Assembly (NCBI RefSeq): GCF_003019035.1
Contig: NZ_CP027447.1
Length of the DNA stretch: 64,000 nt
Direction: 5' to 3' (one strand)
Source of the DNA: Escherichia coli
Lineage (GTDB): Bacteria > Pseudomonadota > Gammaproteobacteria > Enterobacterales > Enterobacteriaceae
The notes beneath the pieces are model-generated. The model had not been told where the DNA came from. It worked only from the letters and a program-made list of their open reading frames with translations, and searched no databases. This document shows, in pieces, positions 5,805 to 45,647 of the stretch (the stretch's first letter is position 1; each line of letters starts with the position of its first letter). The position numbers and the translations under genes are program-made.

Positions 5805-5958
5805 GCCTGCAAGTGAAGATATATTACCTTGATCTCATTTGTTTTTTTGCTGCCTGTGTACCCTAATTGCCATGCGATGTTGCACCGACGCAAACCACCG
5901 TTTACGCCGGAGGAGTTAAAAGCGCTGATGGATGCAAATAAATCAAATTAATGAACGC

Positions 5959-6939: not shown

Positions 6940-7003
6940 ATAATTTTCGCGTAATTGAAATGATAAATTGATAGCAGGGCCCCTTTACCGGGGCCCTGAA
7001 GCG

Positions 7004-8110: not shown

Positions 8111-8129
8111 TGTGACTGTCTCCTGTCTA

Positions 8130-8855: not shown

Positions 8856-9267
8856 TCATTTGTAGGATACAGAAAGCAATACAAAGCCCGCATAAACAAT
8901 TAGCATTTATGTTGTGTAATATTTTTTTGCCAGGCTTATAGTGTCTTTGGCAACGGGTAACTGTATTTTATATTTTTTGTATAAGGTCTCCTGTGAAAAT
9001 TCTCTTTTCACATTATTTAAATAAACAGAGATCCAGATTAAATACCTGAGTATAAAATCTCTTCTGATGTTTAATTGATTTGAATGTTCGTAAGCTATAT
9101 CACTTACTCAATCCATTTTACCCAGAGTCATAAAATAGAGTGTCTGTTGATCTCATTTTCATATTCCTTTCAGACTGAAGTGCATTTTCATCACCCGATG
9201 TGAAAGAACTGAAGTGATGTTTGCCATAGATTACGAGATGCCCAGTCTCATTGACTATCGTGGTGCA

Positions 9268-9290
9268 CCTTTATACCTGTTATACCAGAT
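9268..9290 (-). promoter_or_regulatory. NanR-operator-like GGTATA repeats in the nanC-fimB intergenic region
   Basis: Minus-strand reading atctGGTATAacaGGTATAaag (plus-strand TATACC repeats at 9272..9286) matches the NanR GGTATA-repeat operator type known for nan promoters. Confidence 0.45.
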
Positions 9291-26433: not shown

Positions 26434-26826
26434 GTGCGCAAAATGATGCGCCAATCACTTCAGGCTGTTTTACCTGAAATTTCAGGCAATAAAACGTCAT
26501 CGCTGCGTAAATCGGTATGCAGCGATCTCCTCACACTTTTTAATTCTCCTCATTCGGCATTACCGTCATTACTTGTTTCAGGCATGCCCGAGTGGCAAGT
26601 GCATAACCAGAGCGACAAACATCTTCAGAGCTGGTATTGCCGTCAGCTGCGTTCTGCACTGTTATTTCATGAGCCACGGATTGCGGCGTTGCAGGTCAAT
26701 TTGAAAGAAGCGTACTGCCACACGCTGGCGATCAGCCTTGAGATAATGCTGTACCACGACGATGAACCGCTAACGTTTGATCTGGTCTGGCAGAAGGGGA
26801 GTTGGCATCGCACGATGCCGCAGTAA
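26434..26826 (+). CDS. iraD: Anti-adaptor protein IraD (YjiD)
   Basis: 130-aa ORF; synteny and remembered sequence. Confidence 0.75.
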
Positions 26827-26873
26827 ATGACGGGAAACGCGATACGCGCAAGACGTATCGCGTTAGGTCACAA

Positions 26874-29255
26874 TTAGTGGGAGGTTCTGATTGCTGCTTT
26901 CAAGGCCGGAAGCCGGGACGGACTGGCACTGAGCTTATCAATCCCCATGGTGAGCAGTCGTGCTGTTTGCTGGGTATCTCCAGCCATTTCGCCGCACATA
27001 CTGACCGGAATTTCATTATTACGTCCGGCCTGACACACCATAGCAATAGCGTTAATCACCGCGTCATTACGATAATCGACCAGTTCCGCGACGGTGCTAT
27101 TTCCTCTGTCTGCCGCCATAATATATTGCGTCAGATCGTTGGTGCCGATGGAAAAGAAATCGACTTCACTGGCTAATTTTTCTGCAATCATGACTGCAGC
27201 AGGAACCTCAATCATAATTCCCAGCGCCGGAAGATTTTCTGCAGTAAGTCCCAGCAGTTTTGCCTGCGTTTGTATCAGCGTTTTGACGGCGTTGACCTCC
27301 TCGAGCGTTGAAACCATCGGCAGCATAATTTGCAGCGTTGGGTATTCTTTCCCGGCCCGGAGAAGTGCGCGTAATTGCGGAATAAATATTTGCGGATGCG
27401 CCAGGCACAACCGGATACCGCGAAGTCCCAGGAACGGGTTGTCCTCTGCGGGTAAAGGGTACGAAGGTAATGGCTTGTCACCGCCAATATCCAGAGTGCG
27501 GATGGTGACTGGTTTATCGCCAAAAGCCTGAGCAACAGAACAATACACGCGAAACTGCTCTTCTTCATCGGGTAATGTTGCAGACTCATGGAATAAAAAC
27601 TCTGTGCGCAGTAAACCCACGCCCTCAGCCCCGTGAGATAGCGCAGCCTCAATATCTTGCAGGTCACCAATATTCGCCAGCACGCTGATTTTTCGCCCAC
27701 CTTGCGTGACAGCGGGCAGCATGGCATCAGCTAACTGACGATCCCTTTGTTGCCGCCATGCTTCGGCGCGTTGCAGTAAATCCAGGCGGGTGACCTCATC
27801 CGGCTGTAGCCACAAACGGCCTGTTTCACCATCAAGAATGACTGTGTCGTTATCGCGGACGTTTTGCGGGGTAATAGCTGCCTTCACAATGGCAGGAATA
27901 CCCATTGCTCTGGCAAGGATCGCTGTATGTGAAGTTGTTCCGCCATTATGAAGACAAATGCCAAGAATGTGTGCTTTATTCAGGCTGGTTATCTGTGATG
28001 GCAACAGATCGTTGGCTAACAAAATGCAGGGCGCGGTAGTAATAAAGTGTTGTTCACTTACCCCGCAAAGCTGGTTCAGTACCTGACGTGTAAGGTCACG
28101 GATATCTGCCTCGCGTTCACGTAAATACAGTGTTTCCGCCTGACAATATTGCTCTGCTAATGCCTGCATGACTTCTAACCATGCGAATTCCGCCTGTTTG
28201 CCCTTTGCCAGACGTTGCTGTAATTGCCGGTTAATCTTTGGATCTTCAAGCATCATTTTATGGGCGGCAAAAATATCGCCTTCAGGGCCTGCCGCTTTAT
28301 CGGCAAGTTCACAAACAACAATGTCGATAGCAGACTCGATTCGCGACAGCTCTTCTTGCGGAGAATCGACGGTGCGCTGCGTAATTTCTGGTCGTTCGCA
28401 GGTAAACCATTTAACAGGACCAATAGCGATACCATTTTGTACTGACAAGCCTGATATTGCGCCATCAACAGGGGCGCTGACCACCGGCGTTTCCGTTAGC
28501 GGAATCTCTGAAGAAGCGAGCAGGTGAGCTTCACCAAAATGATTTTTCGCCAACGTTTCAATTGCCTTGAGAGCGTCACTGGCATCGGTGCCTTCGGCCT
28601 GGAAGATGATTTCATCGCCACAGCGGACGCCCAGCATTGCCAGTTCGTTGAGACTGCGGGTGCTGGCGCGTTTATCGCCTTTGATGACGATAATGTTTGC
28701 CGAAAATTGTGCGGATACTTTCAGGATGCTGGCTGCCGGACGAGCATGAATGCCGTGGGGATTACGTATCGTCCAGCAAAAAGTTTGCCATTCATCGCAA
28801 TGATTGATTGGTGATATTGCTGGAATAACCTCGCCTGCAGTTGAGGATGGCGTGAGTTGCTGCTGTTTAGCACACAGCGCAAGATCCACTTCAGCGATAA
28901 TCTCCGTCACCGAAAGCCCCGCTGCGGCAGACGTTACCGCTGACATGGCACCTTCCACTACAGGGGCGGCGAGCAGATAAATTGCACTTCTTTGCTCTTC
29001 AGAAAGCAGCTCCAGCGCCATCTCGGTACTAAGCAGCGCACTGCCCATATCCATGAGTACCAGAACGCCATCCGGTGACCAGACCGATTCAATCGCAGAC
29101 ATAATGGCAATAGCATCAGTGCCAATCGGATTTTGCGGATCATCAATACCTGCAGCAATGGCCAGAGGAACGTCCCCTCCAGACATCTGTAGTGCTAATT
29201 CCTCAACCCCCTGGGCGAGACGTAGACTATGAGAAACAATAACAATGGCAACCAT
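26874..29255 (-). CDS. DhaM-like PTS multiphosphoryl transfer protein (EIIA-Man-like, HPr-like and full Enzyme I domains)
   Basis: N-terminus MVAIVIVSHSLRLAQGVEEL...IAAGIDDPQNPIGTDA closely resembles DhaM. HPr-like HGIHARPAA. EI-like GGTTSHTAILARAMGIPAIV and PEP-utilising C-terminal region. 793 aa. Confidence 0.75.
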   Translation of the reverse strand: MVAIVIVSHSLRLAQGVEELALQMSGGDVPLAIAAGIDDPQNPIGTDAIAIMSAIESVWSPDGVLVLMDMGSALLSTEMALELLSEEQRSAIYLLAAPVVEGAMSAVTSAAAGLSVTEIIAEVDLALCAKQQQLTPSSTAGEVIPAISPINHCDEWQTFCWTIRNPHGIHARPAASILKVSAQFSANIIVIKGDKRASTRSLNELAMLGVRCGDEIIFQAEGTDASDALKAIETLAKNHFGEAHLLASSEIPLTETPVVSAPVDGAISGLSVQNGIAIGPVKWFTCERPEITQRTVDSPQEELSRIESAIDIVVCELADKAAGPEGDIFAAHKMMLEDPKINRQLQQRLAKGKQAEFAWLEVMQALAEQYCQAETLYLREREADIRDLTRQVLNQLCGVSEQHFITTAPCILLANDLLPSQITSLNKAHILGICLHNGGTTSHTAILARAMGIPAIVKAAITPQNVRDNDTVILDGETGRLWLQPDEVTRLDLLQRAEAWRQQRDRQLADAMLPAVTQGGRKISVLANIGDLQDIEAALSHGAEGVGLLRTEFLFHESATLPDEEEQFRVYCSVAQAFGDKPVTIRTLDIGGDKPLPSYPLPAEDNPFLGLRGIRLCLAHPQIFIPQLRALLRAGKEYPTLQIMLPMVSTLEEVNAVKTLIQTQAKLLGLTAENLPALGIMIEVPAAVMIAEKLASEVDFFSIGTNDLTQYIMAADRGNSTVAELVDYRNDAVINAIAMVCQAGRNNEIPVSMCGEMAGDTQQTARLLTMGIDKLSASPSRLPALKAAIRTSH

Positions 29256-29258
29256 AAT

Positions 29259-29891
29259 TTATCCCGCGAATCCTTCCTGCATAGCCTTAATCATCAGCCA
29301 GGAGGAGGTCGCGCCTGGATCCTGATGGCCCACACTGCGAGCGCCGAGATAACTGGCACGTCCTTTTTTCGCCTGCATATTGATGGTGTTATCGACGGCT
29401 GTTGCCGCATCTTGCACCATCGTATTCAGCAGAAGGGAAGGCGACATTCCGGCTTGCAGGTTCTTTTTGGCTTCGTGGAGAACTGGAACCCAGACATCAC
29501 ACAGAGTTTTATCCCTTTGTTCTGCTTTTCCTCGTGCGATAACGCCTGCAATCCCTTCTTCCAGACACGCCAGCCACTCTTCCAGAGTTAATTCTGTTCT
29601 GGCTCCCACTGCCGCAGAAGCGCGAATAAATAATGTGCCGTAAAGAGGACCACTGGCACCGCCAACGCTGGAAAGTAGTTTCATGCCAGTATTTTTAAGA
29701 ATATTGCCAATATGCTGACGTTCAATGTCGGGCAACGTCGCTTTCACTGCACTGAAACCACGATTCATATTGAGGCCGTGGTCGGCATCACCAATATCTC
29801 TGTCAAGTGCGGTTAGAAAATCTTGTTGTTCAGTGAGATGTGCAGCACAACTCTCCAGCCAGGCAATAACATGTTTGTTTTGAATTTTCAT
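29259..29891 (-). CDS. Dihydroxyacetone kinase ADP-binding subunit DhaL-like
   Basis: 210-aa ORF with ...DRDIGDADHGLNMNRGF... DhaL signature; sits between the DhaK-like and DhaM-like genes. Confidence 0.8.
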   Translation of the reverse strand: MKIQNKHVIAWLESCAAHLTEQQDFLTALDRDIGDADHGLNMNRGFSAVKATLPDIERQHIGNILKNTGMKLLSSVGGASGPLYGTLFIRASAAVGARTELTLEEWLACLEEGIAGVIARGKAEQRDKTLCDVWVPVLHEAKKNLQAGMSPSLLLNTMVQDAATAVDNTINMQAKKGRASYLGARSVGHQDPGATSSWLMIKAMQEGFAG

Positions 29892-29903
29892 ATAATGTCC
29901 TTA

Positions 29904-30974
29904 TTAACATCCCCAACGAAGCGCTGGCGTATTGACCGGGGCATCCCAAAGTTGCAAAAACTCTGGGGTACATTTCAGCAGGCTGATGGAAAATCCGGCC
30001 ATATCTAATGATGTACAATAATTACCGACCAACTGGCGGCTAATTTTAATTCCCTGGCGCTGTGCGGCGCACATAAATACCCTGGCTACACCATATAACT
30101 CTGATTCAGGCGTGCTGCCAAGTCCGTTAATTAACACAATATATTCGGCATTTTGATCGAATGACTCATTCATTGATGATGCGTCAATCCATCCCCCCGC
30201 ATGGCGATCCCAATGGCGTAATGTGCGTCGCCAGGGGGTATTATCCAGTAATTGCGCTATCACGCTGTCGATTAAAGTGTTCAGATCTTGCAAAGTGCGG
30301 CGTTCAATGCCGGGTTCACCGTGGATCCCGACACCAAATTCGATTTCATTATCAGCCAGTTCAAATGAGGGTTTTCCCGCGGCGGGAACCGTACAGGCTG
30401 ACAGTGCGATGCCAAAAGAACGGGTGGCATTGTTAACATTTTTGCCAAGTTGCTCGCACTGCCCCAGGTTATATCCCTGAAGTGCAGCCGCACCGACAAT
30501 CTTTTCAACAAAAACTGTACCCGCAACACCGCGACGTCCGGCTGTATACAGGCTATCTTTTACCGCTACATCATCATCAATAATGACGGTCCCAACGGCG
30601 ATGCCTTCTTCGTGTAACATCTCGACTGCCGTTTCGAAATTCAGAATATCGCCTGTGTAATTTTTGATGAAAAACAGAACGCCAGAACCATTATCAACCG
30701 CTTTGGCACATTCGATCATTTGATCTGGCGTGGGCGATGTGAAGATTTCACCAGGACATGCACCGGTTAACATTCCCATACCGACAAAACCTGCATGCAG
30801 TGGTTCATGGCCTGAGCCGCCGCCTGAAATCAGCGCCACTGCATTATCGGTTTGTTTGCACCACACATATCGGGGCGCGTAATTTGCCTGCAGGTGTGGC
30901 CAGGTGGCGATGAGTCCTTCCATTTGTTCTGTGACAACAGAATCAATCTGGTTAATTAATTTCTTCATAGTCAT
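29904..30974 (-). CDS. Dihydroxyacetone kinase substrate-binding subunit DhaK-like
   Basis: 356-aa ORF with ...ISGGGSGHEPLHAGFVGMGMLTGACPGEIFTSP... DhaK signature. Confidence 0.8.
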   Translation of the reverse strand: MTMKKLINQIDSVVTEQMEGLIATWPHLQANYAPRYVWCKQTDNAVALISGGGSGHEPLHAGFVGMGMLTGACPGEIFTSPTPDQMIECAKAVDNGSGVLFFIKNYTGDILNFETAVEMLHEEGIAVGTVIIDDDVAVKDSLYTAGRRGVAGTVFVEKIVGAAALQGYNLGQCEQLGKNVNNATRSFGIALSACTVPAAGKPSFELADNEIEFGVGIHGEPGIERRTLQDLNTLIDSVIAQLLDNTPWRRTLRHWDRHAGGWIDASSMNESFDQNAEYIVLINGLGSTPESELYGVARVFMCAAQRQGIKISRQLVGNYCTSLDMAGFSISLLKCTPEFLQLWDAPVNTPALRWGC

Positions 30975-31293
30975 TCCTGTTCTGATAAATTACGTAAATC
31001 GCGCTAAATATGTTTGCGAGATTAATTCTCCAGCCGCAATAAAACAAATCGCACGATAATAAGATTCATAATGAAACAGTTAATTCATGGTGTTGTTTCA
31101 AAATGAAAAGGGACCAGTATGGATATTGATATATTGTGATTAAGGCATGAAAAGTGTTTTTTATTATCATCTGCAGATGATGTTTTTTACAGCGCGATCA
31201 TAAAACATAATTTTTCGCGAATGAAATGTTTGCCGCCACTGGATGCAACGAGTAGGTTAACAGTGAAGCAAAACAAGTTACGCGAGGAATGAT

Positions 31294-32376
31294 ATGGATA
31301 AGATTATTATAAGTCCGGCTAAATATATCCAGGGAAATGGTTCTCTGGATAATATTGCTACATATGCGGCGAGTTTGGGAACAGAACCATTAATTATTGC
31401 AGATGAATTTGTGACCGGTCTGGTTGGTGACAGAGTAAGCCAGAGCTTTGCAAGAGAAAACATTATTGCGGATCTTGATGTTTTTTGCGGTGAATGCTCG
31501 CAAAATGAAATTTCTCGAATTCGTGAGAAATTTAATCAGCGTAAATATAATGTCGTTATTGGTATTGGCGGCGGTAAAACGTTGGATACGGCAAAAGCCG
31601 TAGCGTATTACCAAAAAATTCCGGTGGTGGTGGTGCCGACAATTGCTTCCACAGATGCGCCAACCAGTTCTCTGGCAGTAATTTACACCCCGGAAGGCCA
31701 GTTTAGCGAATATCTGTTTTTCCCGAAAAACCCGGATATGGTGATTATGGATACTGGCGTCATTTCAGCCGCGCCAGTGCGTCTGCTGGTGGCCGGTATG
31801 GGAGATGCATTGTCAACCTGGTTTGAGGCGAGAGCCAATCAGGCGTCAGGAAAAGCCACAATGGCAGGTGGGGCGTCGACACTGGCGGCACTGGCTATTG
31901 CCCGACTCTGTTATACCACGCTACTGGAAGATGGCTATAAGGCAAAAGTCGCGGTTGAACAAGGTGTTAGCACCAAAGCGGTAGAGAATATTATCGAAGC
32001 TAATACCTATCTTAGCGGCATTGGATTTGAAAGTAGCGGCCTGGCGGCAGCTCATGCCATTCATAACGGCATGACGCAACTGGAGGAATGCCATCATTGC
32101 TACCACGGTGAAAAAGTGGCATTTGGCGTCCTGGTACAGCTCGTACTGGAAAACGCACCACAGGAGGAAATTGAAACCGTACTCAATTTCTGCCATAGCG
32201 TTGGTCTGCCGACAAATCTTCATATGTTAGGCGTGAAGGAAATTAATAAAGATAAATTACGGGCAGTGGCTGAAGCAGCGACTGCTGAAGGGGAAACTAT
32301 CCATAATATGCCATTCGTAGTAACAGCGCAGGACGTTCTTTGCGCAATTTTAACTGCACATCATTTGGGACTTTAA
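31294..32376 (+). CDS. Glycerol dehydrogenase-like iron-containing alcohol dehydrogenase (GldA paralogue)
   Basis: 360-aa ORF, MDKIIISPAKYIQGNGSL... similar to the GldA N-terminus; divergent from the dhaKLM-like operon. Confidence 0.75.
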   Translation: MDKIIISPAKYIQGNGSLDNIATYAASLGTEPLIIADEFVTGLVGDRVSQSFARENIIADLDVFCGECSQNEISRIREKFNQRKYNVVIGIGGGKTLDTAKAVAYYQKIPVVVVPTIASTDAPTSSLAVIYTPEGQFSEYLFFPKNPDMVIMDTGVISAAPVRLLVAGMGDALSTWFEARANQASGKATMAGGASTLAALAIARLCYTTLLEDGYKAKVAVEQGVSTKAVENIIEANTYLSGIGFESSGLAAAHAIHNGMTQLEECHHCYHGEKVAFGVLVQLVLENAPQEEIETVLNFCHSVGLPTNLHMLGVKEINKDKLRAVAEAATAEGETIHNMPFVVTAQDVLCAILTAHHLGL

Positions 32377-32386
32377 AAAAATAATA

Positions 32387-32409
32387 CGGCCTGTGCAAAG
32401 CAGGCCGTT
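32387..32409 (+). terminator. Possible terminator hairpin after the gldA-like gene
   Basis: acggcctg-tgcaaag-caggccgt hairpin followed by a weak T-rich run. Confidence 0.3.
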
Positions 32410-32443
32410 GGTGTCATTTTAAATACTTCATTCGGGAATAAAT

Positions 32444-33712
32444 ATGACCAGTAACTGGAAACGTTGGATCACGCTGGCGTTATGTGGTATTGCCGGAAGT
32501 GCAATATATAAATTGCCTTATTTACGGGAAACCTATTACGACGCGATGCAGCAGGCTACAGGAGCGACTAATGCTGAACTTGGTTTTCTAATGACAGCCT
32601 ATGGTCTGGTGAACTTTTTATTATATCTACCTGGCGGTTGGGCTGCCGATAGATTTTCTGCACGTAAATTAATGACCTTTTCATTAATTTCCACCGGGAT
32701 AAGTGGTTTTTATTATGCGACCTTCCCCTCGTATACTATGATCTGTTTGTTACATGCACTTTGGGCTGTTACAACCGTATTTACGTTTTGGGCCGTGTGT
32801 GTGCGAATTATTCGTACCCTGGGAACCAGCGAAGAACAAGGTCGCTTATACGGTTACTGGTTTCTGGGTAAGGGATTAACCTCCATTGTACTGGGATTTC
32901 TTTCCGTGCCGGTATTTGCCAAATTTGGCGAAGGTGTTGATGGTTTACGGGCGACAATTATTTTTTATTCCGTAGTGACTATTCTGGCCGGTGTTTTAGC
33001 TTGGTTTGTTTGTCAGGATGAAACGCACAGCGAAGATAAAGCGAATTTCCGTCTGGCAGATATGGCATTCGTGCTGAAAATGCCGACGGTTTGGCTGGCA
33101 GGTGTTGTGACCTTTTGTATGTGGTCAATTTATATCGGCTTTGGCATGGTCACGCCGTATCTCACGCAGATCCTGCATATGGGCGAATCGGAAGTGGCAG
33201 TTGCCAGTATTCTTCGCGCCTATGTGTTATTTGCGATGGGGGGATTAATTGGCGGACAACTGGCCGACCGCTGTGCGTCACGCACGCGTTTTATGATTTA
33301 CGCCTTTATCGGCATGATTGTCTTTACTACCGTTTATTTCTTCCTGCCCGGTGAGTCGCGCTACGTCACTATTGCGCTGGCGAATATGGTTGCGTTGGGC
33401 GTGTTTATTTACTCTGCGAATGCCGTGTTCTTCTCAATTATTGATGAGGTTCGGATCCCGGCAAAAGTCACAGGGACTGCTGCGGGTCTGATCTCTTTAC
33501 TGACTTATTTCCCGGAAATCTACTGCTACACGATGGTGGGCAATATGGTCGACCGCAAACCGGGTATTGCCGGTTATCAGGATGTTTTCCTGTTCATGTT
33601 GGTTTGCGCATTCATCGGCCTTATCGCCGCACTGGTCCTCCAGCGTGTGAATCGTAAAAGTAAAAATCAAGTCAATGAAATCACTGAAAACAATGCGGAT
33701 TGCGCATCCTGA
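32444..33712 (+). CDS. MFS-type transporter
   Basis: 422-aa polytopic hydrophobic ORF. Confidence 0.65.
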   Translation: MTSNWKRWITLALCGIAGSAIYKLPYLRETYYDAMQQATGATNAELGFLMTAYGLVNFLLYLPGGWAADRFSARKLMTFSLISTGISGFYYATFPSYTMICLLHALWAVTTVFTFWAVCVRIIRTLGTSEEQGRLYGYWFLGKGLTSIVLGFLSVPVFAKFGEGVDGLRATIIFYSVVTILAGVLAWFVCQDETHSEDKANFRLADMAFVLKMPTVWLAGVVTFCMWSIYIGFGMVTPYLTQILHMGESEVAVASILRAYVLFAMGGLIGGQLADRCASRTRFMIYAFIGMIVFTTVYFFLPGESRYVTIALANMVALGVFIYSANAVFFSIIDEVRIPAKVTGTAAGLISLLTYFPEIYCYTMVGNMVDRKPGIAGYQDVFLFMLVCAFIGLIAALVLQRVNRKSKNQVNEITENNADCAS

Positions 33713-35094
33713 GTCTGACGGGGGAACCAATGGTGGACATGATTAATGAAAGTGCACGGCAAACGCCAGTCATTGCACAAACGGACGTTCTGGTTATCGG
33801 GGGCGGTCCGGCAGGATTAACGGCGGCGATAGCGGCGGGGCGGCTAGGTGCCAGAACCATGATTGTTGAGCGTTACGGCTCACTAGGCGGCGTATTGACG
33901 CAGGTTGGTGTGGAAAGTTTTGCCTGGTATCGCCATCCGGGGACGGAAGATTGTGAAGGGATTTGTCGTGAATATGAAGGCCGCGCGCGAGCATTGGGCT
34001 TCACGCGACCAGAACCTCAGTCAATTAGCGAAGTTATAGATACTGAAGGATTTAAAGTTGTTGCCGATCAGATGATAACGGAAGCTGGCGTTGAGCCGTT
34101 ATATCACTCCTGGGTTGTGGATGTGATCAAGGAAGGGGATACGTTATGCGGTGTTATTGTCGAGAACAAATCAGGACGAGGGGCAATTCTGGCGAAAAGA
34201 ATCGTCGATTGCACGGGGGATGCTGATATTGCTGCTCGTGCAGGCGCGCCCTGGACGAAACGGGGAAAGGACCAACTGATGGGCGTCACCGTGATGTTCA
34301 GTTGCGCAGGTGTCGATGTGGCGCGCTTTAACCGTTTTGTTGCGGAAGAACTTAAGCCGACCTACGCGGATTGGGGAAAAAACTGGACGATTCAAACCAC
34401 GGGCAAAGAAGACCAGATGTTTAGCCCTTATATGGAGGATATTTTTACCCGGGCGCAGCAGGATGGTGTGATTCCAGGCGACGCCCAGGCGATTGCCGGA
34501 ACCTGGTCAACCTTTTCTGAAAGCGGCGAAGCGTTTCAGATGAATATGGTGTACGCCTTTGGTTTTGACTGTACCGATGTCTTCGATTTAACCAAAGCAG
34601 AAATCGCCGGAAGGCAGCAAGCATTATGGGCAATTGACGCTCTACGCCATTATGTTCCGGGCTTTGAAAATGTACGGTTACGCAATTTTGGCGCCACGCT
34701 GGGTACACGTGAATCACGGCTTATTGAGGGGGAAATACGTATTGCTGATGATTACGTCCTTAATCAGGGGCGTTGTTCGGACAGTGTAGGGATTTTCCCG
34801 GAATTTATTGATGGTTCCGGTTATCTCATTTTGCCAACGACCGGGCGTTTCTTTCAGATCCCCTATGGCTGTCTGGTGCCACAAAAAGTGGAGAACCTTT
34901 TGGTCGCCGGTCGCTGTATTTCCGCAGGCGTAGTTGCACATACTTCTATGCGCAACATGATGTGTTGTGCCGTTACCGGTGAGGCCGCAGGCACTGCCGC
35001 CGTGGTTTCGCTACAGCAACATTGCACCGTGCGTCAGGTTGCTATCCCTGATTTGCAAAACACGCTGCAACAGCAGGGCGCACGTCTGGCATAA
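33700..35094 (+). CDS. FAD-dependent oxidoreductase (paralogue 1)
   Basis: N-terminal dinucleotide-binding motif DVLVIGGGPAGLTAAIAA; about 460 aa; paralogous to 44263..45633. Confidence 0.7.
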   Translation: MRILSLTGEPMVDMINESARQTPVIAQTDVLVIGGGPAGLTAAIAAGRLGARTMIVERYGSLGGVLTQVGVESFAWYRHPGTEDCEGICREYEGRARALGFTRPEPQSISEVIDTEGFKVVADQMITEAGVEPLYHSWVVDVIKEGDTLCGVIVENKSGRGAILAKRIVDCTGDADIAARAGAPWTKRGKDQLMGVTVMFSCAGVDVARFNRFVAEELKPTYADWGKNWTIQTTGKEDQMFSPYMEDIFTRAQQDGVIPGDAQAIAGTWSTFSESGEAFQMNMVYAFGFDCTDVFDLTKAEIAGRQQALWAIDALRHYVPGFENVRLRNFGATLGTRESRLIEGEIRIADDYVLNQGRCSDSVGIFPEFIDGSGYLILPTTGRFFQIPYGCLVPQKVENLLVAGRCISAGVVAHTSMRNMMCCAVTGEAAGTAAVVSLQQHCTVRQVAIPDLQNTLQQQGARLA

Positions 35095-35146
35095 CAACAA
35101 GGCGCAGAGAGCTGAAAACCTGTCTGCGCCTTGCAGGAGAAAGACC

Positions 35147-35371
35147 ATGAGGGATGATGACCTTGAGCACTTAAGTGCCAATTACTGGATAACCACAGTT
35201 CTCTGCGGCCTCTTTTTGGGGATATTCCTGTTCATGCTGCAACAGCATCAGTGTGGTTTAGCTCTGTATTGTATTGCGGTACTTTCACTTATTTGCGCCT
35301 TTTTTTCTTTACGCCTTTCCCGACAATTGCAACACATGAAAAAGGAACGGCGAAATATTCGTCCTCATTGA
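35147..35371 (+). CDS. Small putative membrane protein
   Basis: 74 codons from an ATG preceded by aggaga; one or two hydrophobic helices. Weak support. Confidence 0.3.
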   Translation: MRDDDLEHLSANYWITTVLCGLFLGIFLFMLQQHQCGLALYCIAVLSLICAFFSLRLSRQLQHMKKERRNIRPH

Positions 35372-35394
35372 ATGAAAACATTCAGGAGACTGAA

Positions 35395-36936
35395 ATGCAA
35401 TATTTAAAAAAACGCTTTTCTTTGATTGAACTGAATGTGTTTATCCCAGCAATATTATTTATTGCGGTAATCATTCTGTGTTTGACGATATATCCACAAG
35501 ATACCAGCCGGTATATAAATAAAATACATCATTTTTTAACCTGGGAAATGGGCGGGATTTTTCTGGTCATGACTTTTCTGGTTGTACTTTGTTGTCTGTG
35601 GCTGGCCTTCTCACGTTATGGCGATATCTTGTTAGGTCAGTCGGGAGAAAAGCCTGACTTCAGCTTGTTAACCTGGCTTGGACTTATTTTTACTTCTGGA
35701 ACGGGGGGCAGCTTGTTATATCTGGCCTCTGTAGAGTGGATTTGGATCATTCAGCAACCGCCTTTTGGCGCGGCAGCAGGAAGCGCTCAGGCTGCTCGTT
35801 GGGCCTCTGCTTATGGCATGTTCCATTGGGGGCCGTCCGCATGGGCATGGTATCTGATTTGTGCCGTTCCCATTGGTTGGTTTATGCATGTTAAGAAAAC
35901 GAACTCATTAAAGGTCAGTGATTTATGCCGTGGGTGTCTGGGGGCACGTGCTGATGGTTTTTGCGGGCATTGTGTGAATTTTTTCTACATGTTTGGTTTG
36001 CTCGGCGGCGCGGTAACGTCTCTGGCGCTGGGAACGCCGATGATTTCTGCCGTATTTTGCCATGTGTTCCATCTGGATCCTGCCGGGCAGTTTATCAATG
36101 TCATGGTTATTTTTATCTGGACGCTAGTGCCATTATTAATTCTCTTTTTTGGACTTAAAAAAGGTGTGGCATGGGCCAGTAACTGGAATATTCGTGCCGA
36201 TATTTTTATGCTACTGGCAATACTGATTTGTGGACCGACAGCTTTTATACTTAACCAATCAATTGATGGTTTCGGCCTGATGCTGCAAAATTTTGTAGCG
36301 ATGAGTTTAAGTACCGATGCTATTGGTCGTAGCGGATTTCCACAGATGTGGACCGTATTTTATTTTTCATGGTGGGTCGTGTATGCCATCCCATTCGGTT
36401 TATTTATCGCCCGTATTTCAAAAGGAAGGACGATCCGGCAATTGATTGTATGTGGAACTCTGGCAGGTTCATTGGGATGCATGGTTTTTTACATGGTACT
36501 GGCTAATTTCGGCTTATCGTTGCAGACAACTCATGTCATCGATTTTGTTCCCATACTTAACGAACAAGGGCGAGGCGTTGTCGTTTCTCGTTTACTGGAG
36601 CAGCTACCCGCAAGTCAGGTGTTTTTGGTTGCTTTTGGGGCTATAGCATTAATTTCATATATTACCGGACACTGTACTGTGGGTTATGCCCTCGGTTTTG
36701 CGACGCAAAAACGGGCAGATAGTGAGAGTGAACCGGCATTCTGGAACGTGGCATTTTGGTTGATTATGACCGGAATCGTCGCCATCACACTCTATCTTCT
36801 TGATGCGCAAAGTCTGCAACCGCTACAAACGGTCTCTATACTGGCCGGACTACCGCTTTGCGGCGTAGTGTTTATTTTATTGAAGAGTTTTTTGACACAG
36901 TTTGCGGCTGAAGAGAAAACCGCGAGAGATGAATAA
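35395..36936 (+). CDS. BCCT-family transporter
   Basis: ORF track 35251..36936, trimmed to the Met at 35395 (aggaga SD upstream). BCCT-like signature ...FYFSWWVVYAIPFGLFIARISKGRTIRQL... Confidence 0.7.
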   Translation: MQYLKKRFSLIELNVFIPAILFIAVIILCLTIYPQDTSRYINKIHHFLTWEMGGIFLVMTFLVVLCCLWLAFSRYGDILLGQSGEKPDFSLLTWLGLIFTSGTGGSLLYLASVEWIWIIQQPPFGAAAGSAQAARWASAYGMFHWGPSAWAWYLICAVPIGWFMHVKKTNSLKVSDLCRGCLGARADGFCGHCVNFFYMFGLLGGAVTSLALGTPMISAVFCHVFHLDPAGQFINVMVIFIWTLVPLLILFFGLKKGVAWASNWNIRADIFMLLAILICGPTAFILNQSIDGFGLMLQNFVAMSLSTDAIGRSGFPQMWTVFYFSWWVVYAIPFGLFIARISKGRTIRQLIVCGTLAGSLGCMVFYMVLANFGLSLQTTHVIDFVPILNEQGRGVVVSRLLEQLPASQVFLVAFGAIALISYITGHCTVGYALGFATQKRADSESEPAFWNVAFWLIMTGIVAITLYLLDAQSLQPLQTVSILAGLPLCGVVFILLKSFLTQFAAEEKTARDE

Positions 36937-36991: not shown

Positions 36992-38134
36992 TTAACTCAG
37001 GACTGCATGAAAATACCCTGCCAAATTTTCTCCGAGACGAATTAAATTATTTTCCCCCTGACTCAGCGCGGTGGGTAAATCACAAGGACCATTGACGACG
37101 GAAAAACAGGCTTCGATTCCACACTGGCGTAACTCATTCAAATCAAGTTGATCATCGATATACCCGGCAATTGCGATAACCGGAACGCCCATCATCTGGG
37201 CGATTTTGGCCGCCCCCACAGGTGCTTTGCCATTCAGGCTTTGACGGTCTAATTTACCTTCACCGACAATCGCCAATGCTGCATATTTTAAATGTTGGGT
37301 ATATTGAATCGCTTCCAGCACGAGCGAAATACCCGGTTGTAAGCGAGCATCGAGAAAAGCCATCAAGGCCGCGCCAACGCCGCCAGCCGCCCCAGAACCG
37401 GGTATCGTATCGACTTCTTTACCACAACAACGGTAGATGCAACGGGCATAGTTTTTCATTCCCTGTTCCAGTTGCTCAAGGTTGTCAGCACTGGCCCCTT
37501 TTTGTTGAGCAAAAACCCGAGTCGCGCCGTTATCGCCGGTTAGTGGGTTGGTGACATCACAGGCTGCAATAAATTTCACATTTTTCAATCGTGGATCGAG
37601 GTGCTGTAAGTCAATGTGGTGAATTGCCGCCAGCCCCATCCCATTAACGGAGACTGATTGCCCTTCGGCGTCTGTAAACGATGCGCCAAGTGCCGACATC
37701 AACCCAATACCGCCATCATTTGTAGCACTGCCACCCAGGCATAGAATAACGGTATCAATATTGTGTTCCAGGGCGGCGAGAATAAGTTCGCCAGTGCCAA
37801 ACGACGTCGTATAAAGGGGAGAACGCTGGACAGGAGAAACCAGTTCCAGCCCTGAAGCTTGTGCCAGTTCTATCACTGCGGTGGTTTGGTTGCCTAAAAT
37901 ACCGTATTGCGCATGTATTGATTCTCCAAGCGGTCCGGTGACTTTTTTAGTGTAAAACGTACCGTCAGTCGCATGAATGAGTGTTTCGAGCGTGCCTTCG
38001 CCGCCGTCAGCCACGGGCAAACACACCAGTTGGCTGCCAGGCAGGACCTTGCGCCAGCCGGTTGCCAGCGCTTCGGCGACTTTCCATGCGGGAAGGCATT
38101 CTTTAAAGGAGTCGGGGGAGATAACTATCTTCAT
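36992..38134 (-). CDS. Glycerate kinase (GlxK/GarK family)
   Basis: 380-aa ORF, MKIVISPDSFKECL... typical glycerate kinase N-terminus. Confidence 0.8.
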   Translation of the reverse strand: MKIVISPDSFKECLPAWKVAEALATGWRKVLPGSQLVCLPVADGGEGTLETLIHATDGTFYTKKVTGPLGESIHAQYGILGNQTTAVIELAQASGLELVSPVQRSPLYTTSFGTGELILAALEHNIDTVILCLGGSATNDGGIGLMSALGASFTDAEGQSVSVNGMGLAAIHHIDLQHLDPRLKNVKFIAACDVTNPLTGDNGATRVFAQQKGASADNLEQLEQGMKNYARCIYRCCGKEVDTIPGSGAAGGVGAALMAFLDARLQPGISLVLEAIQYTQHLKYAALAIVGEGKLDRQSLNGKAPVGAAKIAQMMGVPVIAIAGYIDDQLDLNELRQCGIEACFSVVNGPCDLPTALSQGENNLIRLGENLAGYFHAVLS

Positions 38135-38208
38135 AGCAGGTCTCTCAAAATAGGGGAATGGGGCAGGGCAACGAGTGAACGAAGGGAACCGGTGGTTCCC
38201 TTAATTCA

Positions 38209-39096
38209 TTATTTACGGATAGTGAAATTGGCTTGTGTTTCAAGCGCCCGAATTAGCGCAGAATGATCCCACTCTTTACCACCAAGCGCGGCGCAGGCGC
38301 TAAATAATTGTTGCGTCATAGCCGTGTTAGGAAGCGGGGTATTCAACAGGCGAGCATTCTCCAGTGCCAGATTCAGATCTTTTTGATGCAGGCTAATTCG
38401 AAAACCAGGGGCGAATGTCCCTTTGATCATCCGTTCGCCATGAACTTCCAATACACGAGAGGAAGCAAAACCCCCCATCAGAGCTTCACGTACGCGGGCG
38501 GGATCGGCACCTGATTTACTGGCAAAAAGCAGGGCTTCAGCCACCGCTTCAATATTCAGTGCAACAATAATTTGGTTAGCGACTTTGCACGTTTGACCAT
38601 CACCGATGTTACCGACCAGAGTGATATTTTTACCCATCAATTCCAGAATCGGTTTGATCTGTAAATAAACCTCTTCACATCCGCCAACCATAATGGAAAG
38701 CGTCCCGGCTTTCGCGCCAACTTCACCGCCAGAGACGGGCGCATCGATATATTCCGCGCCTCCCGCGATAATACGTTGTGCAAATGCTTTGGTGGCAACC
38801 GGGGAAATTGAACTCATATCAATGACAATTTTCCCGTGGCTTAAACCGTGTATTACGCCATAGTTGGGATGAAAAAGAACATCCTCAACATGTGGGGTAT
38901 CAGGGAGCATGGTGATGATGACCTCACACTCCTGCGCGACTTCACGCGGTGTAGAGCAAACAATGCCACGTTCACCAATAAGCTCTTGCGGTGCAGGTTC
39001 AAAATGCGCTGAAAAATAAAGAGTATGTCCGGCTTGTTGTAAATTATAAGCCATCGGCTTACCCATTATGCCGGTGCCGATAAATCCAATATTCAT
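38209..39096 (-). CDS. Tartronate semialdehyde reductase-like (GlxR/GarR family)
   Basis: 295-aa ORF, MNIGFIGTGIMGKPMAYNL... NAD-binding motif. Confidence 0.75.
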   Translation of the reverse strand: MNIGFIGTGIMGKPMAYNLQQAGHTLYFSAHFEPAPQELIGERGIVCSTPREVAQECEVIITMLPDTPHVEDVLFHPNYGVIHGLSHGKIVIDMSSISPVATKAFAQRIIAGGAEYIDAPVSGGEVGAKAGTLSIMVGGCEEVYLQIKPILELMGKNITLVGNIGDGQTCKVANQIIVALNIEAVAEALLFASKSGADPARVREALMGGFASSRVLEVHGERMIKGTFAPGFRISLHQKDLNLALENARLLNTPLPNTAMTQQLFSACAALGGKEWDHSALIRALETQANFTIRK

Positions 39097-39113
39097 GATA
39101 AATACCTCAGGGA

Positions 39114-39896: not shown

Positions 39897-39908
39897 AATC
39901 CTGTTTCC

Positions 39909-41648: not shown

Positions 41649-42026
41649 ACATTATTTCTCCTGATATTTACGCTGAGTTGAATAGTCAGTCAATTTTGGA
41701 ATTTAACGACGAAATATCTTTGAGGAAATAAAAGGGCAGAACAAATTTCGCTGCACTGTTTCACAGTGAAACAACTCGTATGCCTGTGTTGTTTCAGTTT
41801 GAATAATGATAAATATCAAACGCAAAGATTTCAGATGTTGTTGGCAGTTTTAAAATTTATCTAATGTATTATTCGTTTTTTATTGCTTTAACGGTTATTC
41901 TTTCTAATGTATGTATGGTTACATTGTTGATAAGGTCTGTTTTTGTAATGATCCAGACTAGATATTATTGCGTTTGATCAAGCTTACTGGCATAGCATTC
42001 TGATACAAGTTCTGAAAATGACTTGA

Positions 42027-43976
42027 ATGGATATTATTATAATGAATAAAGAGTCGTATCATAATGATCTAAAAAATAAATGGAAAATGTTTGTTAAGCA
42101 TGGTTGGGTCGCGACAAATTCGACTAATCATGTGATGCTGAGGTCATGGCAAAAATGTCTCAAGCATTGTGACCCTCGCCACTGGAACACGCCTGTCAAA
42201 GCTTCCGGGCAAACATTGCAGACGATTTTTTCTCGTAACGAAGAGTTTATTAGAATTTCACAAAGAGTTGTTGAAGACCATTTCACTCTGGCTGGTGACG
42301 ACCGGTTGGCATTTTTGATCATTGACCCACACGGCTGGGTTCTATCGTTGAATGCAGCAGGCGATTATTCCAGTCAATTGCGAGAGTTAGGAATTGAATC
42401 TGGTATGTCATGGGCCGAAGATGGCATTGGAACCAATGTATATAGTCTTTGTCGGGAAACAAATTTATATACACAACTGGAAGGAGCAGAACATTTTAGT
42501 GAACAGCTACATTGTTATGCGATGAGCGCTGCTCCGGTCATTGATTATTATGGTAATATCCATGGATACATTGTATGTATAATTGAAACTACCGCCGAGC
42601 TTGTTAAATTAAAAACATCATATTCATGTGCAACAGAAATCGCTAATTATATCTATATTGAGAATGAACAAAAGTTAATAAACAAAGTACTTTGCCAGCA
42701 TAATGCTGTGATTGAATGCATGGATGACGGTTTTATTTGTTGGAATAGTCATTCTTTAATTACGATGGTTAATTCTCAAGCACAAACACTACTGAATATT
42801 GATAAAGAAAGTTTAATTGGTCAGAACATCCGAAAAGGATTCGTATTTCCGCCGATTTTGAATGAGGCAATTACACAACGGAACAAACTATCGCAAAAGC
42901 AAATTGTCCTCGAATGCCGTGGCGAATTTATTGAACTTATGGTTACCCTTCGCCCGTTAAGCGATGGTTCGTTTTTACTTTTTCTTCATCCATTAGACAA
43001 AATCAGGAAAATAGCCCAACAGCAAATAAGCACTAATGCAAATTTTACCTTTGACAGTTTACATGCGGCTTCAGGTGGTATGAAGCAGGTATTACTTATC
43101 GCTCGCCGGGCAATTAAATCCATCTCTCCGATTTTGATCAATGGCGAAGAAGGTGTGGGAAAATTGAGTTTGGCGATGGCAATACATAATGAGAGCGAGC
43201 AACGTGATGGGCCATTTATTTCTGTAGATTGTCAGATGCTATCACCAGAAAATATCTTACACGAACTTCTTGGCTCTGATGTTGGCCCTTCGCCATCGAA
43301 ATTTGAACTGGCTCATAATGGCACCTTATATCTGGATAAAGTCGAATATCTATCAGGGGAAGTTCAGAGTGTTTTATTGAAAGTATTGAAAACGGGGCTT
43401 GTTACTCGCTCAGACAGCCATCGTTTGATCCCCGTACGCTTTCGCCTGATTACATGTACCAGTAGTTCGTTACGTGAGTACGTGCAACAAGGGGCTTTTA
43501 GCCGACAGCTATATTATGAGATCTCCATGAATGAAATTGAAATTCCGCCATTGCGCAAACGTCGTGAAGATCTCAAGCAAATGATTGACGATATTATTGA
43601 TAAGTATCAGGAGCGCACTCGAAAAAAAATGACAATCACGCCTGACGCAAATTCAGTTCTGCTTGAGTACCGTTGGCCTGGAAACATCTCCGAGTTCAAA
43701 AATCGAATGGAGAAGGTATTTATTAACTGCAATCGGCTTGTCCTCGGATTAGAGAATATTCCTCTGGATATCCGACAAAATAACAGTAGTGGCGACGATG
43801 ATATCCCTCATCTTACTTCACTGGCAGAATTGGAGATGCAAGCTATTGAGCATACATGTCGTGTCTGCGAATGGAATCTAACTAAAGCAGCTGAAGTATT
43901 AAAAATTGGTCGTACAACATTATGGCGCAAGCTTAAAATCTATAATCTCTATCCAAATGTTGAGCATGCAGATTGA
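42027..43976 (+). CDS. AAA+ bacterial enhancer-binding-protein-like regulator lacking a GAFTGA motif (DhaR/TyrR-like)
   Basis: 649-aa ORF; central AAA+ domain (GEEGVGKL Walker A-like, NGTLYLDKV Walker B-like) and C-terminal Fis-type HTH (...GRTTLWRKLKIY). No GAFTGA is seen in the translation. Confidence 0.65.
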   Translation: MDIIIMNKESYHNDLKNKWKMFVKHGWVATNSTNHVMLRSWQKCLKHCDPRHWNTPVKASGQTLQTIFSRNEEFIRISQRVVEDHFTLAGDDRLAFLIIDPHGWVLSLNAAGDYSSQLRELGIESGMSWAEDGIGTNVYSLCRETNLYTQLEGAEHFSEQLHCYAMSAAPVIDYYGNIHGYIVCIIETTAELVKLKTSYSCATEIANYIYIENEQKLINKVLCQHNAVIECMDDGFICWNSHSLITMVNSQAQTLLNIDKESLIGQNIRKGFVFPPILNEAITQRNKLSQKQIVLECRGEFIELMVTLRPLSDGSFLLFLHPLDKIRKIAQQQISTNANFTFDSLHAASGGMKQVLLIARRAIKSISPILINGEEGVGKLSLAMAIHNESEQRDGPFISVDCQMLSPENILHELLGSDVGPSPSKFELAHNGTLYLDKVEYLSGEVQSVLLKVLKTGLVTRSDSHRLIPVRFRLITCTSSSLREYVQQGAFSRQLYYEISMNEIEIPPLRKRREDLKQMIDDIIDKYQERTRKKMTITPDANSVLLEYRWPGNISEFKNRMEKVFINCNRLVLGLENIPLDIRQNNSSGDDDIPHLTSLAELEMQAIEHTCRVCEWNLTKAAEVLKIGRTTLWRKLKIYNLYPNVEHAD

Positions 43977-44262
43977 TGCTTTTCAAATTGAAAGAATTTT
44001 AATATCGCAGTGTTTCATTTTGATGCAGTGCTTTAATGGTATTGAAATATTGTGATGTGCTCCATAAATGCCAATGTGGTTATTAGCCAGGGAGACGGAA
44101 AATGTGTTTACACTCCTGAAATAATAAAAAATAGGCAAAGAGAGATGATCTCCTTGTATGTCTGTATTAGCATGATGTTGCTTGTTAATAATTAAAAATA
44201 TCAACGCGCTTATATAAGCGCGGGGGATTGTTTTACTCAATTATTGAATACGGAGATAAAGT

Positions 44263-45633: not shown

Positions 45634-45647
45634 CAGGGAATAAAGTT

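Follow-up and report, generated by a model that had tools for sequence, protein, structure and literature searches.

A DhaM-like multiphosphoryl transfer protein with a complete Enzyme I module, encoded beside dhaK and dhaL in the GimA locus of Escherichia coli

Introduction

Multiphosphoryl transfer proteins (MTPs) that join IIA-Man, HPr, and Enzyme I (EI) in one chain were described by Comas et al. (2008) and are said there to be "invariably associated" with dihydroxyacetone (DHA) kinase genes. Members from Vibrio parahaemolyticus, Photobacterium profundum, and Desulfovibrio vulgaris share a five-domain order and a gene position behind dhaK and dhaL (Comas, González-Candelas & Zúñiga, 2008). 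The E. coli entry there is YcgC alone, with the remark that its "EI lacks C-t domain," and the survey gives no full-length member from E. coli (Comas et al., 2008). In a 2018 paper, PptE, an E. coli protein treated below, is called "uncharacterised." In our literature search, we found no protein of the IIA-Man/HPr/EI type that had been tested biochemically or genetically.

The K-12 member of this class is DhaM (YcgC), which also follows dhaK and dhaL in its operon. It must be charged by EI and HPr because the PEP-binding domain is absent, and this dependence is reportedly what was observed. According to earlier literature summaries, phosphoryl transfer runs from DhaM to DhaL to DhaK and then to DHA, and the same summaries present the paradigm of control through DhaR. 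Two further K-12 proteins, FryA and PtsA, also have an HPr domain and an entire EI within a single polypeptide. Their genes are not adjacent to dhaKL. K-12 ptsA lies in one operon with fsaB and gldA, so that ptsA is also near DHA-related enzymes.

Gene identity and genomic context

In the window, by which we mean the whole 64,000-nt stretch of E. coli DNA that was analyzed, a minus-strand ORF (26874..29255) starts with ATG and encodes a 793-aa MTP with zero internal stops. A matching CDS of 2,382 nt is annotated by RefSeq in both UTI89 and SMS-3-5. The nucleotide identity is 99.4% to UTI89 pptE (= ptnI, 2,382 bp) and 99.7% to SMS-3-5-like genomes, and the encoded protein differs from its UTI89 and SMS-3-5 alleles by 7 and 5 aa, respectively. 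The gene adjoins iraD (yjiD) and belongs to the GimA block, which spans approximately 20 kb between iraD and hypT (yjiE) and has cglDTEC, the gcx genes, and ibeRAT among its other genes. Homeier et al. (2010) named a 2,382-bp gene pptE, equal to ptnI; it belongs to GimA of the ExPEC strains RS218, UTI89, and APEC O1 (Homeier et al., 2010, and reportedly Huang et al., 2001). The window gene and ptnI/pptE from the GimA (ibeA) locus of E. coli are one and the same. The observation is thus already known, as the gene had been named and the fusion class had been described in 2008.

The gene order in the window matches the annotation of SMS-3-5 and UTI89 and the description by Homeier et al. (2010), with the difference that UTI89 is without yjiC, whereas the window keeps yjiC between uxuR and iraD. 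Also, the operon name GimA1 = ptnIPKC implies four ptn genes originally (Homeier et al., 2010), compared to three ORFs in the window. These three ORFs are all on the minus strand. The first is dhaK (29904..30974), which encodes the DHA-binding subunit (TIGR02363, 460.8 vs. a cut-off of 406.25) and is followed after a gap of 12 nt by dhaL (29259..29891), which encodes the ADP-binding subunit (TIGR02365, 245.8 vs. a cut-off of 138.3). Only 3 nt separate the dhaL stop from the start of ptnI/pptE, the last cistron of this dhaK-dhaL-MTP operon. DhaK is 59% identical to its K-12 counterpart, with GVGIHGEPG conserved, and DhaL is 54% identical, with the motif DRDIGDADHG present. Divergent from dhaK is the glycerol dehydrogenase gene cglD (31294..32376, plus strand; NF006941, 558 vs. 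a cut-off of 336). A scan of 26700-31400 for promoters and terminators gave results no better than shuffles.

The association of this type of MTP gene with DHA kinase genes extends beyond the window to V. parahaemolyticus and Pseudovibrio, both of which also have the neighboring glycerol dehydrogenase gene, and to E. lignolyticus, which has the same dhaK-dhaL-MTP arrangement without that gene. As in the window, ptnI/pptE is full length in 244 genomes, without stops or frameshifts, and the identity among carriers is 96-99.7%. The GimA kinase and the core dhaKLM system must coexist in at least 135 complete genomes. Compared to the most divergent E. coli allele, the EI parts of the gene have dN/dS values of 0.065-0.08 and no stops, and are under purifying selection. 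A pseudogene or an annotation artifact is ruled out by this selection together with the intact ORF and the matching RefSeq CDS. As to the RefSeq gene symbol of the CDS in the window, ptsP, the protein has no GAF domain and reaches 397.1 with the PtsP equivalog NF008283, for which the cut-off is 583, so PtsP (EI-Ntr) was rejected; the symbol is used generically and does not denote orthology.

Domain organization and catalytic residues

The earlier note, made from the sequence alone, had proposed that in this protein a DhaM-like EIIA-Man N-terminus is fused to an HPr-like domain and to an apparently complete EI. This holds: five Pfam domains were found in that order, all above cut-offs, with E-values too low for chance. 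The EIIA-man domain (PF03610, aa 4-118, 28902..29246, minus strand; E = 1.6e-23) contains the phosphoryl-carrier His9 within the motif VSHS, and the region also exceeds the cut-off of the EIIA-Man-like model TIGR02364 "dha_pts" (119.6 vs. 98.25). Next is the PTS-HPr domain (PF00381, aa 159-237, 28545..28781, minus strand; E = 1.5e-21), which is 41% identical to K-12 HPr and has His170 in HGIHARP as the counterpart of HPr His15. His9, His170, and Arg172 are invariant in 76 homologs. The N-terminal and mobile histidine domains of EI occupy jointly aa 269-479 (27819..28451, minus strand) according to Pfam and alignment. The former is the HPr-binding domain PEP-utilisers_N (PF05524, aa 269-381; E = 6e-21), and the latter, the PEP-utilizers mobile domain (PF00391, aa 408-479; E = 2.5e-20), has His443 in GGTTSHTAILAR. 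The last domain, PEP-utilizers_C (PF02896, aa 511-791, 26883..27725, minus strand; E = 4e-100), covers profile positions 8-290 of 293. The same Pfam set is present in nearly all of the full-length homologs listed.

The note had named the absence of the PEP-binding domain or of the catalytic histidine as what would speak against it; the domain is complete by Pfam and H443 is present. With TIGR01417, the model of the Enzyme I family in NCBIfam, the protein scores 462.2 bits (cut-off 341.7), and residues 2-540 of the 575 in the PDB Enzyme I chains can be aligned to it. Based on the alignment to K-12 PtsI, H443 and C754 are the counterparts of EI His189 and Cys502, and R550, R586, D589, K594, E683, N706, D707, and R717 correspond to EI Arg296, Arg332, Asp335, Lys340, Glu431, Asn454, Asp455, and Arg465, respectively. 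From structural work on EI, we take His189 to be the catalytic residue, Cys502 the proton donor, and the others ligands of PEP and Mg. All of the EI catalytic and ligand residues checked are invariant in 76 of 76 homologs, down to 47% identity.

Comparison with described proteins

The protein in the window has the domain order and the gene position of the class described by Comas et al. (2008), and is 52% identical to the V. parahaemolyticus MTP. Like the window, the loci of that class have a glycerol dehydrogenase gene and a DhaR-like regulator gene nearby; unlike them, the window has the module inside a larger locus that also contains glyoxylate-pathway genes and ibeRAT.

With K-12 DhaM, the protein shares the first four domains, the histidines H9, H169/170, and H430/443 (K-12/window numbering where two are given), and 38% identity over residues 1-484. 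The note's description of DhaM as about 470 aa long with a truncated EI-like region was correct, as it has 472 aa and no PEP-utilizers_C. DhaM stops just past the mobile histidine domain, whereas the window protein has an extra domain of 310 aa. Furthermore, the score of the window protein with the whole-protein equivalog of K-12-type DhaM (NF008478) is 422.8, which is below the cut-off of 520, and the K, L, regulator, and dehydrogenase partners of the window MTP are nearer to the Vibrio versions than to those of K-12. Judging from these comparisons, the window MTP represents a paralogous lineage and not an ortholog of K-12 DhaM.

The alignment with PtsI (MTP residues 267-793 vs. PtsI 2-541) has 38% identity and includes all three EI domains. 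Unlike PtsI, the window protein has EIIA-Man and HPr fused at its N-terminus and is without the last ~34 residues, and it scores 401 with the PtsI equivalog, which has a cut-off of 824. The identity to FryA and PtsA is 31% over the HPr and EI span. In those two proteins, a fructose/EIIA_2-type IIA domain lies at the C-terminus, whereas the window protein has a mannose/DhaM-type IIA domain at its N-terminus and is without PF00359 (EIIA_2). The domain order rules out an MTP of the FryA/PtsA type. The domain comparison with K-12 DhaM, PtsI, PtsA, and FryA that had been suggested for checking the fusion thus gave the picture expected.

Proposed phosphorelay

We consider it probable, at about 0.75, that the ptnI/pptE product serves as phosphoryl-donor subunit in an accessory DHA kinase of the PTS type, a second one beside the core dhaKLM, which is driven by a self-contained PEP relay. 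The C-terminal EI module would bind PEP and phosphorylate itself on His443. From there, the phosphoryl group would be handed to His170 in the HPr-like domain, intramolecularly or on the dimer partner, and next to His9 in the EIIA-Man/DhaM domain. His9 would donate it to ADP held permanently on DhaL, and the resulting DhaL-bound ATP would phosphorylate DHA on DhaK to give DHAP. The DHA may be derived from glycerol through the glycerol dehydrogenase encoded by the divergently transcribed cglD; that DHA is the substrate of the GimA kinase is assumed from homology. Because all steps from PEP to EIIA are within one polypeptide, PtsI and HPr should be dispensable for the MTP kinase. We infer the direction and autonomy of phosphotransfer, as well as the substrate and the regulation by IbeR described next.

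IbeR and paired palindromes

The GimA locus encodes a regulator, IbeR (42027..43976, plus strand), that is paralogous to DhaR and was annotated as dhaR by PGAP. It has PAS, AAA+, and Fis-type HTH domains, and its identity is 33% to K-12 DhaR and 45% to the regulator beside the Vibrio MTP operon. It has the same Walker A and the same recognition helix, GRTTLWRK; a GAFTGA motif is absent from IbeR. IbeR is presumed, from this kinship, to be the regulator of the dhaK-dhaL-MTP module.

Three intergenic regions of GimA contain pairs of a DhaR-type palindromic motif, TGTTTCA-N3-TGAAACA, with a spacing of 32-33 bp. The first pair (AGATTCATAATGAAACA and TGTTTCAAAATGAAAAG, 32 bp apart; 31062..31110) is in the divergent region between dhaK and cglD, 88-136 bp upstream of the dhaK ATG. 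The second (the perfect TGTTTCACAGTGAAACA and TGTTTCAGTTTGAATAA, 33 bp apart; 41757..41806) is in the divergent region between gcl and ibeR, and the third (32 bp apart; 43979..44027) is between the ibeR stop and the ibeA start codons. In random sequence, 0.013 pairs are expected, and none of 300 shuffles had more than one pair. A distant GimA-like locus in E. lignolyticus has three pairs at the matching three positions, and the paired motif is also found upstream of dhaK in V. parahaemolyticus and in the K-12 dhaR-dhaK region.

The three pairs and their conservation in the distant GimA-like locus therefore suggest GimA as an IbeR regulon. In the fullest form of this proposal, the whole locus, ibeA included, would be one regulon with the DHA kinase as its sensor, which we put forward only tentatively. 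IbeR would bind at the three pairs upstream of dhaK/cglD, gcl/ibeR, and ibeA-ibeT, and its activity would be set by the GimA DhaK and DhaL, with the ADP/ATP state of DhaL in turn set from PEP by the MTP.

A related alternative to the kinase reading is that MTP, DhaL, and DhaK serve mainly as a regulatory sensor. In this reading, DhaL would be charged from PEP and discharged by the substrate, and the balance of the two would decide whether DhaL-ADP or DhaK binds IbeR, which would then switch on the GimA promoters, including that of ibeA. The kinship of IbeR with DhaR, the palindrome pairs, and the published DhaK/DhaL/DhaR control paradigm are consistent with such a role. However, the core DhaR might be what recognizes the palindromes, and in the literature IbeR is treated as an "RpoS-like" regulator with DHA unmentioned; our literature search for IbeR together with DhaR found nothing relevant. 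We regard the mainly regulatory role as possible, with the odds somewhat against it. It is compatible with the kinase reading, and could be the main physiological point.

Alternative roles of the Enzyme I module

The EI module may instead be a general EI paralog that also charges HPr, FPr, NPr, or the core DhaM, so that the protein would provide capacity or cross-talk and not insulation. The module is complete, and E. coli already has EI paralogs in the multidomain proteins FryA and PtsA. Also, overexpression of pptE in a GimA-negative K-12 strain results in filamentation and inclusions; therefore, it has some effect even where its cognate DhaKL is missing, although this phenotype is non-specific and a PEP drain or aggregation could account for it. 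For D. vulgaris Hildenborough, the one carrier of an IIA-Man/HPr/EI protein considered here from the table in Comas et al. (2008), a separate EI and HPr are listed as well. Thus, autonomy need not follow, and there may be cross-talk with the general PTS; the idea that autonomy arose of necessity, in carriers without any other EI, is not supported by that entry. Nevertheless, genes of the fusion class consistently have DHA kinase genes as neighbors, and the tethered HPr domain favors transfer within the molecule. These features make a general EI role unlikely.

Less probable still is that the C-terminal EI domain is catalytically dead or merely structural, such that PtsI and HPr would be needed as they are for K-12 DhaM. 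The last ~34 residues of PtsI are absent from the window protein and from its whole family, and a published demonstration of autophosphorylation with PEP was not found. The missing tail, however, lies beyond the Pfam PEP-binding domain, which covers residues 250-541 of PtsI, and we have set this shortening aside as a sign of inactivity. In addition, all 76 sequences agree at every PEP/Mg-binding position and at the counterpart of Cys502, and the PEP-binding domain is the second most conserved of the protein (mean identity over these homologs 60%, with EIIA at the top with 61%), with dN/dS of 0.08. A dead domain thus appears quite improbable.

Finally, that ptnI/pptE is a decaying relic of a locus being lost from E. 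coli, as the 267 of 5,426 complete genomes that retain only its 3' ~374 bp as a pseudogene and the reductive evolution of GimA described by Homeier et al. (2010) might suggest, is scarcely credible given the purifying selection, the high identity among carriers, and the full-length ORF in 244 genomes and in the window, for which the intact ORF refutes it.

Biological implications

For the fusion itself, little changes. On the kinase reading, GimA-positive E. coli would possess two DHA kinases, the second of which has an Enzyme I of its own in the donor subunit. GimA has been studied as a virulence locus, and the report that originally described it is said to name carbon-source-regulated invasion in its title. 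The sequence evidence points to a DhaR-type control of ibeA that may respond to DHA and PEP. If the locus is indeed an IbeR regulon, ibeA expression would follow the availability of DHA or glycerol as well as the level of PEP, without dependence on the general PTS, which would provide a mechanism for carbon-source-regulated invasion and reframe the view of how GimA is switched on in the host.

Domain architecture of the multiphosphoryl transfer protein

The open reading frame at 26874-29255 (-) is intact, with an ATG start and no internal stops. Its 793-aa product, a multiphosphoryl transfer protein (MTP), bears out the earlier claim of a fusion of DhaM-type, HPr, and complete Enzyme I (EI) parts, as we found five Pfam domains in that order: EIIA-man (residues 4-118; E = 1.6e-23), PTS-HPr (159-237; 1.5e-21), PEP-utilisers_N (269-381; 6e-21), PEP-utilizers mobile His domain (408-479; 2.5e-20), and the PEP-binding PEP-utilizers_C (511-791, profile positions 8-290 of 293; 4e-100). 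MTP scores above the cut-offs of the NCBIfam EI family model TIGR01417 (462.2 bits; curated cut-off 341.7) and the DhaM-type EIIA domain model TIGR02364 (119.6; 98.25), and the solved EI chains 2hwg and 2kx9 align to it across their residues 2-540 of 575 (E ~6e-102). The whole MTP family ends about 34 residues short of PtsI, and this missing tail lies outside the Pfam domain. The RefSeq label "ptsP" is generic; PtsP identity was rejected by the absence of a GAF domain and a PtsP equivalog score of 397 against a cut-off of 583.

For comparison, K-12 proteins from NC_000913.3 were domain-scanned alongside MTP. DhaM (472 aa) has the EIIA-man, HPr, PEP-utilisers_N, and mobile domains without PEP-utilizers_C, as the earlier note had correctly stated (about 470 aa, with a truncated EI-like region). 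PtsI (575 aa) has the three EI domains, with the C domain ending at residue 541, and FryA and PtsA (831 and 833 aa) have HPr, EI, and then a C-terminal EIIA_2 domain. MTP is 38% identical to DhaM across residues 1-484 and, across residues 267-793, 38% identical to PtsI 2-541. When the sequences are aligned, DhaM ends directly after the mobile-His domain. Identity to HPr is 41% across MTP residues 162-237, and that to FryA and PtsA is 31-32%. K-12 PtsA, another EI-containing MTP, adjoins FsaB, an aldolase that uses DHA, and GldA, a glycerol dehydrogenase (5933-10222 in our K-12 ptsA region, L012), and the three genes form one operon (Peiro et al., 2019). This neighborhood is a second, independent link of an EI paralogue to dihydroxyacetone (DHA) metabolism.

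The catalytic residues are likewise retained. His9 (within VSHS) corresponds to DhaM His9, His170 (within HGIHARP) to HPr His15 and DhaM His169, R172 to HPr Arg17, and His443 (within GGTTSHTAILAR) to EI His189 and DhaM His430. The PEP-binding domain has R550 (EI R296), R586 (R332), D589 (D335), K594 (K340), E683 (E431), N706 (N454), D707 (D455), R717 (R465), and C754 (C502). All 13 catalytic positions examined, R172 included, are invariant among 76 full-length homologues with identity down to ~47%. Conservation across the same set is highest in two parts, of which the PEP-binding domain is one (mean identity 60%, compared with 21-28% in linkers). Compared with the allele of strain SC455, which at 83 nt differences was the most divergent found in E. 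coli, the gene as a whole has a dN/dS of 0.13, with values of 0.065 and 0.081 for its two EI parts. Because the PEP-binding domain and the catalytic His are both present and conserved, the possibility that the C-terminal region lacks them falls, and the interpretation of the earlier note survives, supported at the sequence level.

The dS values against SC455 vary strongly along the gene, from ~0.01-0.02 in the EIIA/HPr parts through 0.06 in the central stretch to 0.23 in the PEP-binding part beside iraD. This pattern points to a possible recombination breakpoint within the gene, near the start of the GimA remnant found in other strains.

The GimA locus and its distribution

The window is E. 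coli DNA, with 99.7% identity across 22 kb to SMS-3-5 and similar genomes. The block that holds the MTP gene is flanked by uxuB, uxuR, yjiC, and iraD on one side and hypT, iadA, yjiG, and yjiH on the other. It contains dhaK-dhaL-MTP (26874-30974, -); genes for glycerol dehydrogenase, an MFS transporter, a FAD oxidoreductase, and a BCCT transporter (31294-36936, +); genes for glycerate kinase, tartronate-semialdehyde reductase, hydroxypyruvate isomerase, and glyoxylate carboligase (36992-41648, -); and ibeR, ibeA, and ibeT (42027-47051, +). This is the GimA locus, described as a 20.3-kb cluster from yjiD (iraD) to yjiE (hypT) with the operons ptnIPKC, cglDTEC, gcxKRCI, and ibeRAT (Homeier et al., 2010). 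Its pptE, synonymous with ptnI, is 2,382 bp (Homeier et al., 2010), exactly the length of our reading frame. The MTP gene is thus already known, with two published names and RefSeq annotation in hundreds of genomes. The FAD-dependent oxidoreductases CglE (33700-35094, +) and IbeA (44263-45633, +) are paralogues (both PF12831), each followed by a transporter gene (BCCT-family and NhaC-type, respectively).

The full MTP gene is present in 244 of 5,426 complete E. coli genomes; 267 have only its last ~374 bp, and ~4,900 have no trace. The remnant, in the hypT-iraD interval, is annotated as a pseudogene for a "putative PEP-binding protein" (e.g., 8003-8374 in UPEC 26-1 region L002), and the census agrees with the 342-bp 3' remnant of pptE that is all many UPEC strains retain (Homeier et al., 2010). 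Core dhaM was found in 5,317 of the 5,426 genomes; therefore, at least 135 genomes have both DHA kinase systems.

Two other genes in the window are absent from the matching positions in UPEC 26-1. One (51395-56635, -), between kptA and yjiJ, encodes an invasin/intimin-type inverse autotransporter (1,746 aa) with an IAT_beta domain and numerous Big_1 and Invasin_D3 repeats. The other (59200-61173, -), between yjiK and yjiL, encodes a 657-aa pentapeptide-repeat protein.

A separate lineage of DHA kinases

Hundreds of proteins share the five-domain set of MTP. Identity is 90-92% in Escherichia marmotae and E. albertii, 67% in [Enterobacter] lignolyticus, 58% in Citrobacter, 54% in Serratia, ~52% in Vibrio and Photobacterium, and ~49-50% in Pseudovibrio and Rhodobacteraceae. 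All three neighborhoods examined (V. parahaemolyticus, Pseudovibrio, and E. lignolyticus) have dhaK-dhaL-MTP, accompanied in the first two by a glycerol dehydrogenase gene. Identities of the GimA components to their V. parahaemolyticus and K-12 counterparts are 64 and 59% for DhaK, 65 and 54% for DhaL, 52 and 38% for MTP, 75 and 57% for glycerol dehydrogenase, and 45 and 33% for the regulator. Since all five are nearer to V. parahaemolyticus, the GimA kinase belongs to a separate, widespread lineage, and its reading as a variant of the K-12 operon is ruled out.

Neither the fusion nor its interpretation is new, as both the architecture class and the way in which K-12 DhaM differs from it have been on record since 2008. 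In Comas et al. (2008), full IIA-Man/HPr/EI proteins are tabulated for Photobacterium profundum and Desulfovibrio vulgaris, a V. parahaemolyticus member is named in the text, and for the four E. coli genomes of that time only YcgC is listed, marked "EI lacks C-t domain".

A complete GimA-like locus outside Escherichia was found in E. lignolyticus (CP012871.1, 971133-991915), in another chromosomal context and with the order ibeT-ibeA-ibeR, gcl-hyi-glxR-glxK, BCCT-FAD-MFS, and dhaK-dhaL-MTP. The glycerol dehydrogenase gene is seemingly missing, with a 61-aa ORF at the cglD position in one E. lignolyticus region (L013) and no call in the other (L014).

Proposed phosphoryl relay

In K-12, according to published summaries, DhaM transfers the phosphoryl group to the ADP bound by DhaL, from which it reaches the DHA held by DhaK. 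The GimA proteins retain the motifs GVGIHGEPG (DhaK) and DRDIGDADHG (DhaL), and 3 nt separate the dhaL stop from the MTP start. From the domains and residues present, their conservation, and the operon layout, we infer that PEP would phosphorylate His443, with transfer within MTP to His170 and His9 and then, by homology with K-12, to DhaL·ADP and to DHA on DhaK, yielding DHAP. MTP would thus charge itself from PEP without PtsI/HPr, as the earlier note had suggested, and would be insulated from the general PTS. DHA, the predicted substrate, may be supplied from glycerol via the divergently transcribed dehydrogenase. Our literature search turned up no experimental work on proteins of the IIA-Man/HPr/EI class. 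A 2018 study termed PptE "uncharacterised" and reported that its overexpression in K-12 caused recA-independent filamentation and membrane-staining inclusions, with nothing further.

Paired palindromes and IbeR

In the K-12 dhaR-dhaK intergenic region, the palindrome TGTTTCA-N3-TGAAACA occurs twice at a spacing of 31-33 bp, and such a pair is also found upstream of dhaK in V. parahaemolyticus and E. lignolyticus and in the GimA dhaK-cglD region. A scan of the whole 64-kb window (≤3 mismatches) gave 11 matches, six of which form three pairs with spacings of 32, 33, and 32 bp; in 300 Markov-1 randomizations, the mean number of pairs was 0.013 and the maximum 1. The first pair (31062/31094; 31062-31110) lies in the dhaK/cglD region, 88-136 bp upstream of the dhaK start codon. 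The second (41757/41790; 41757-41806), whose first copy is a perfect match, lies between the divergent genes gcl and ibeR, and the third (43979/44011; 43979-44027) between the ibeR stop and ibeA. The E. lignolyticus GimA-like locus, with its 67% identical MTP, has only six matches in 20.8 kb, which make up the same pairs in the three corresponding intergenic regions (17876/17908, 8093/8126, and 5866/5898 in L013, equivalent to the dhaK, gcl/ibeR, and ibeR-ibeA pairs).

IbeR (42027-43976, +), called an "RpoS-like regulator" in the literature and DhaR in RefSeq, is paralogous to DhaR and has PAS, AAA+, and Fis-HTH domains. Its identity is 33% to K-12 DhaR and 45% to the regulator beside the V. 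parahaemolyticus dhaK-dhaL-MTP operon. All three have the Walker A motif GEEGVGK and the recognition helix GRTTLWRK and lack the GAFTGA σ54-contact motif. Published summaries state that DhaR acts at a σ70 promoter and that DhaL activates and DhaK represses it, according to the nucleotide load of DhaL. The IbeR papers examined make no mention of DhaR or DHA.

The three pairs are probably IbeR/DhaR-type operators, judging from sequence, and we consider these putative operators a more interesting lead than the MTP finding. If they do serve as such, GimA, ibeA included, would be a single IbeR regulon, possibly with the MTP-DhaL-DhaK set as its signal input, a natural but tentative reading to which we give roughly one chance in three.
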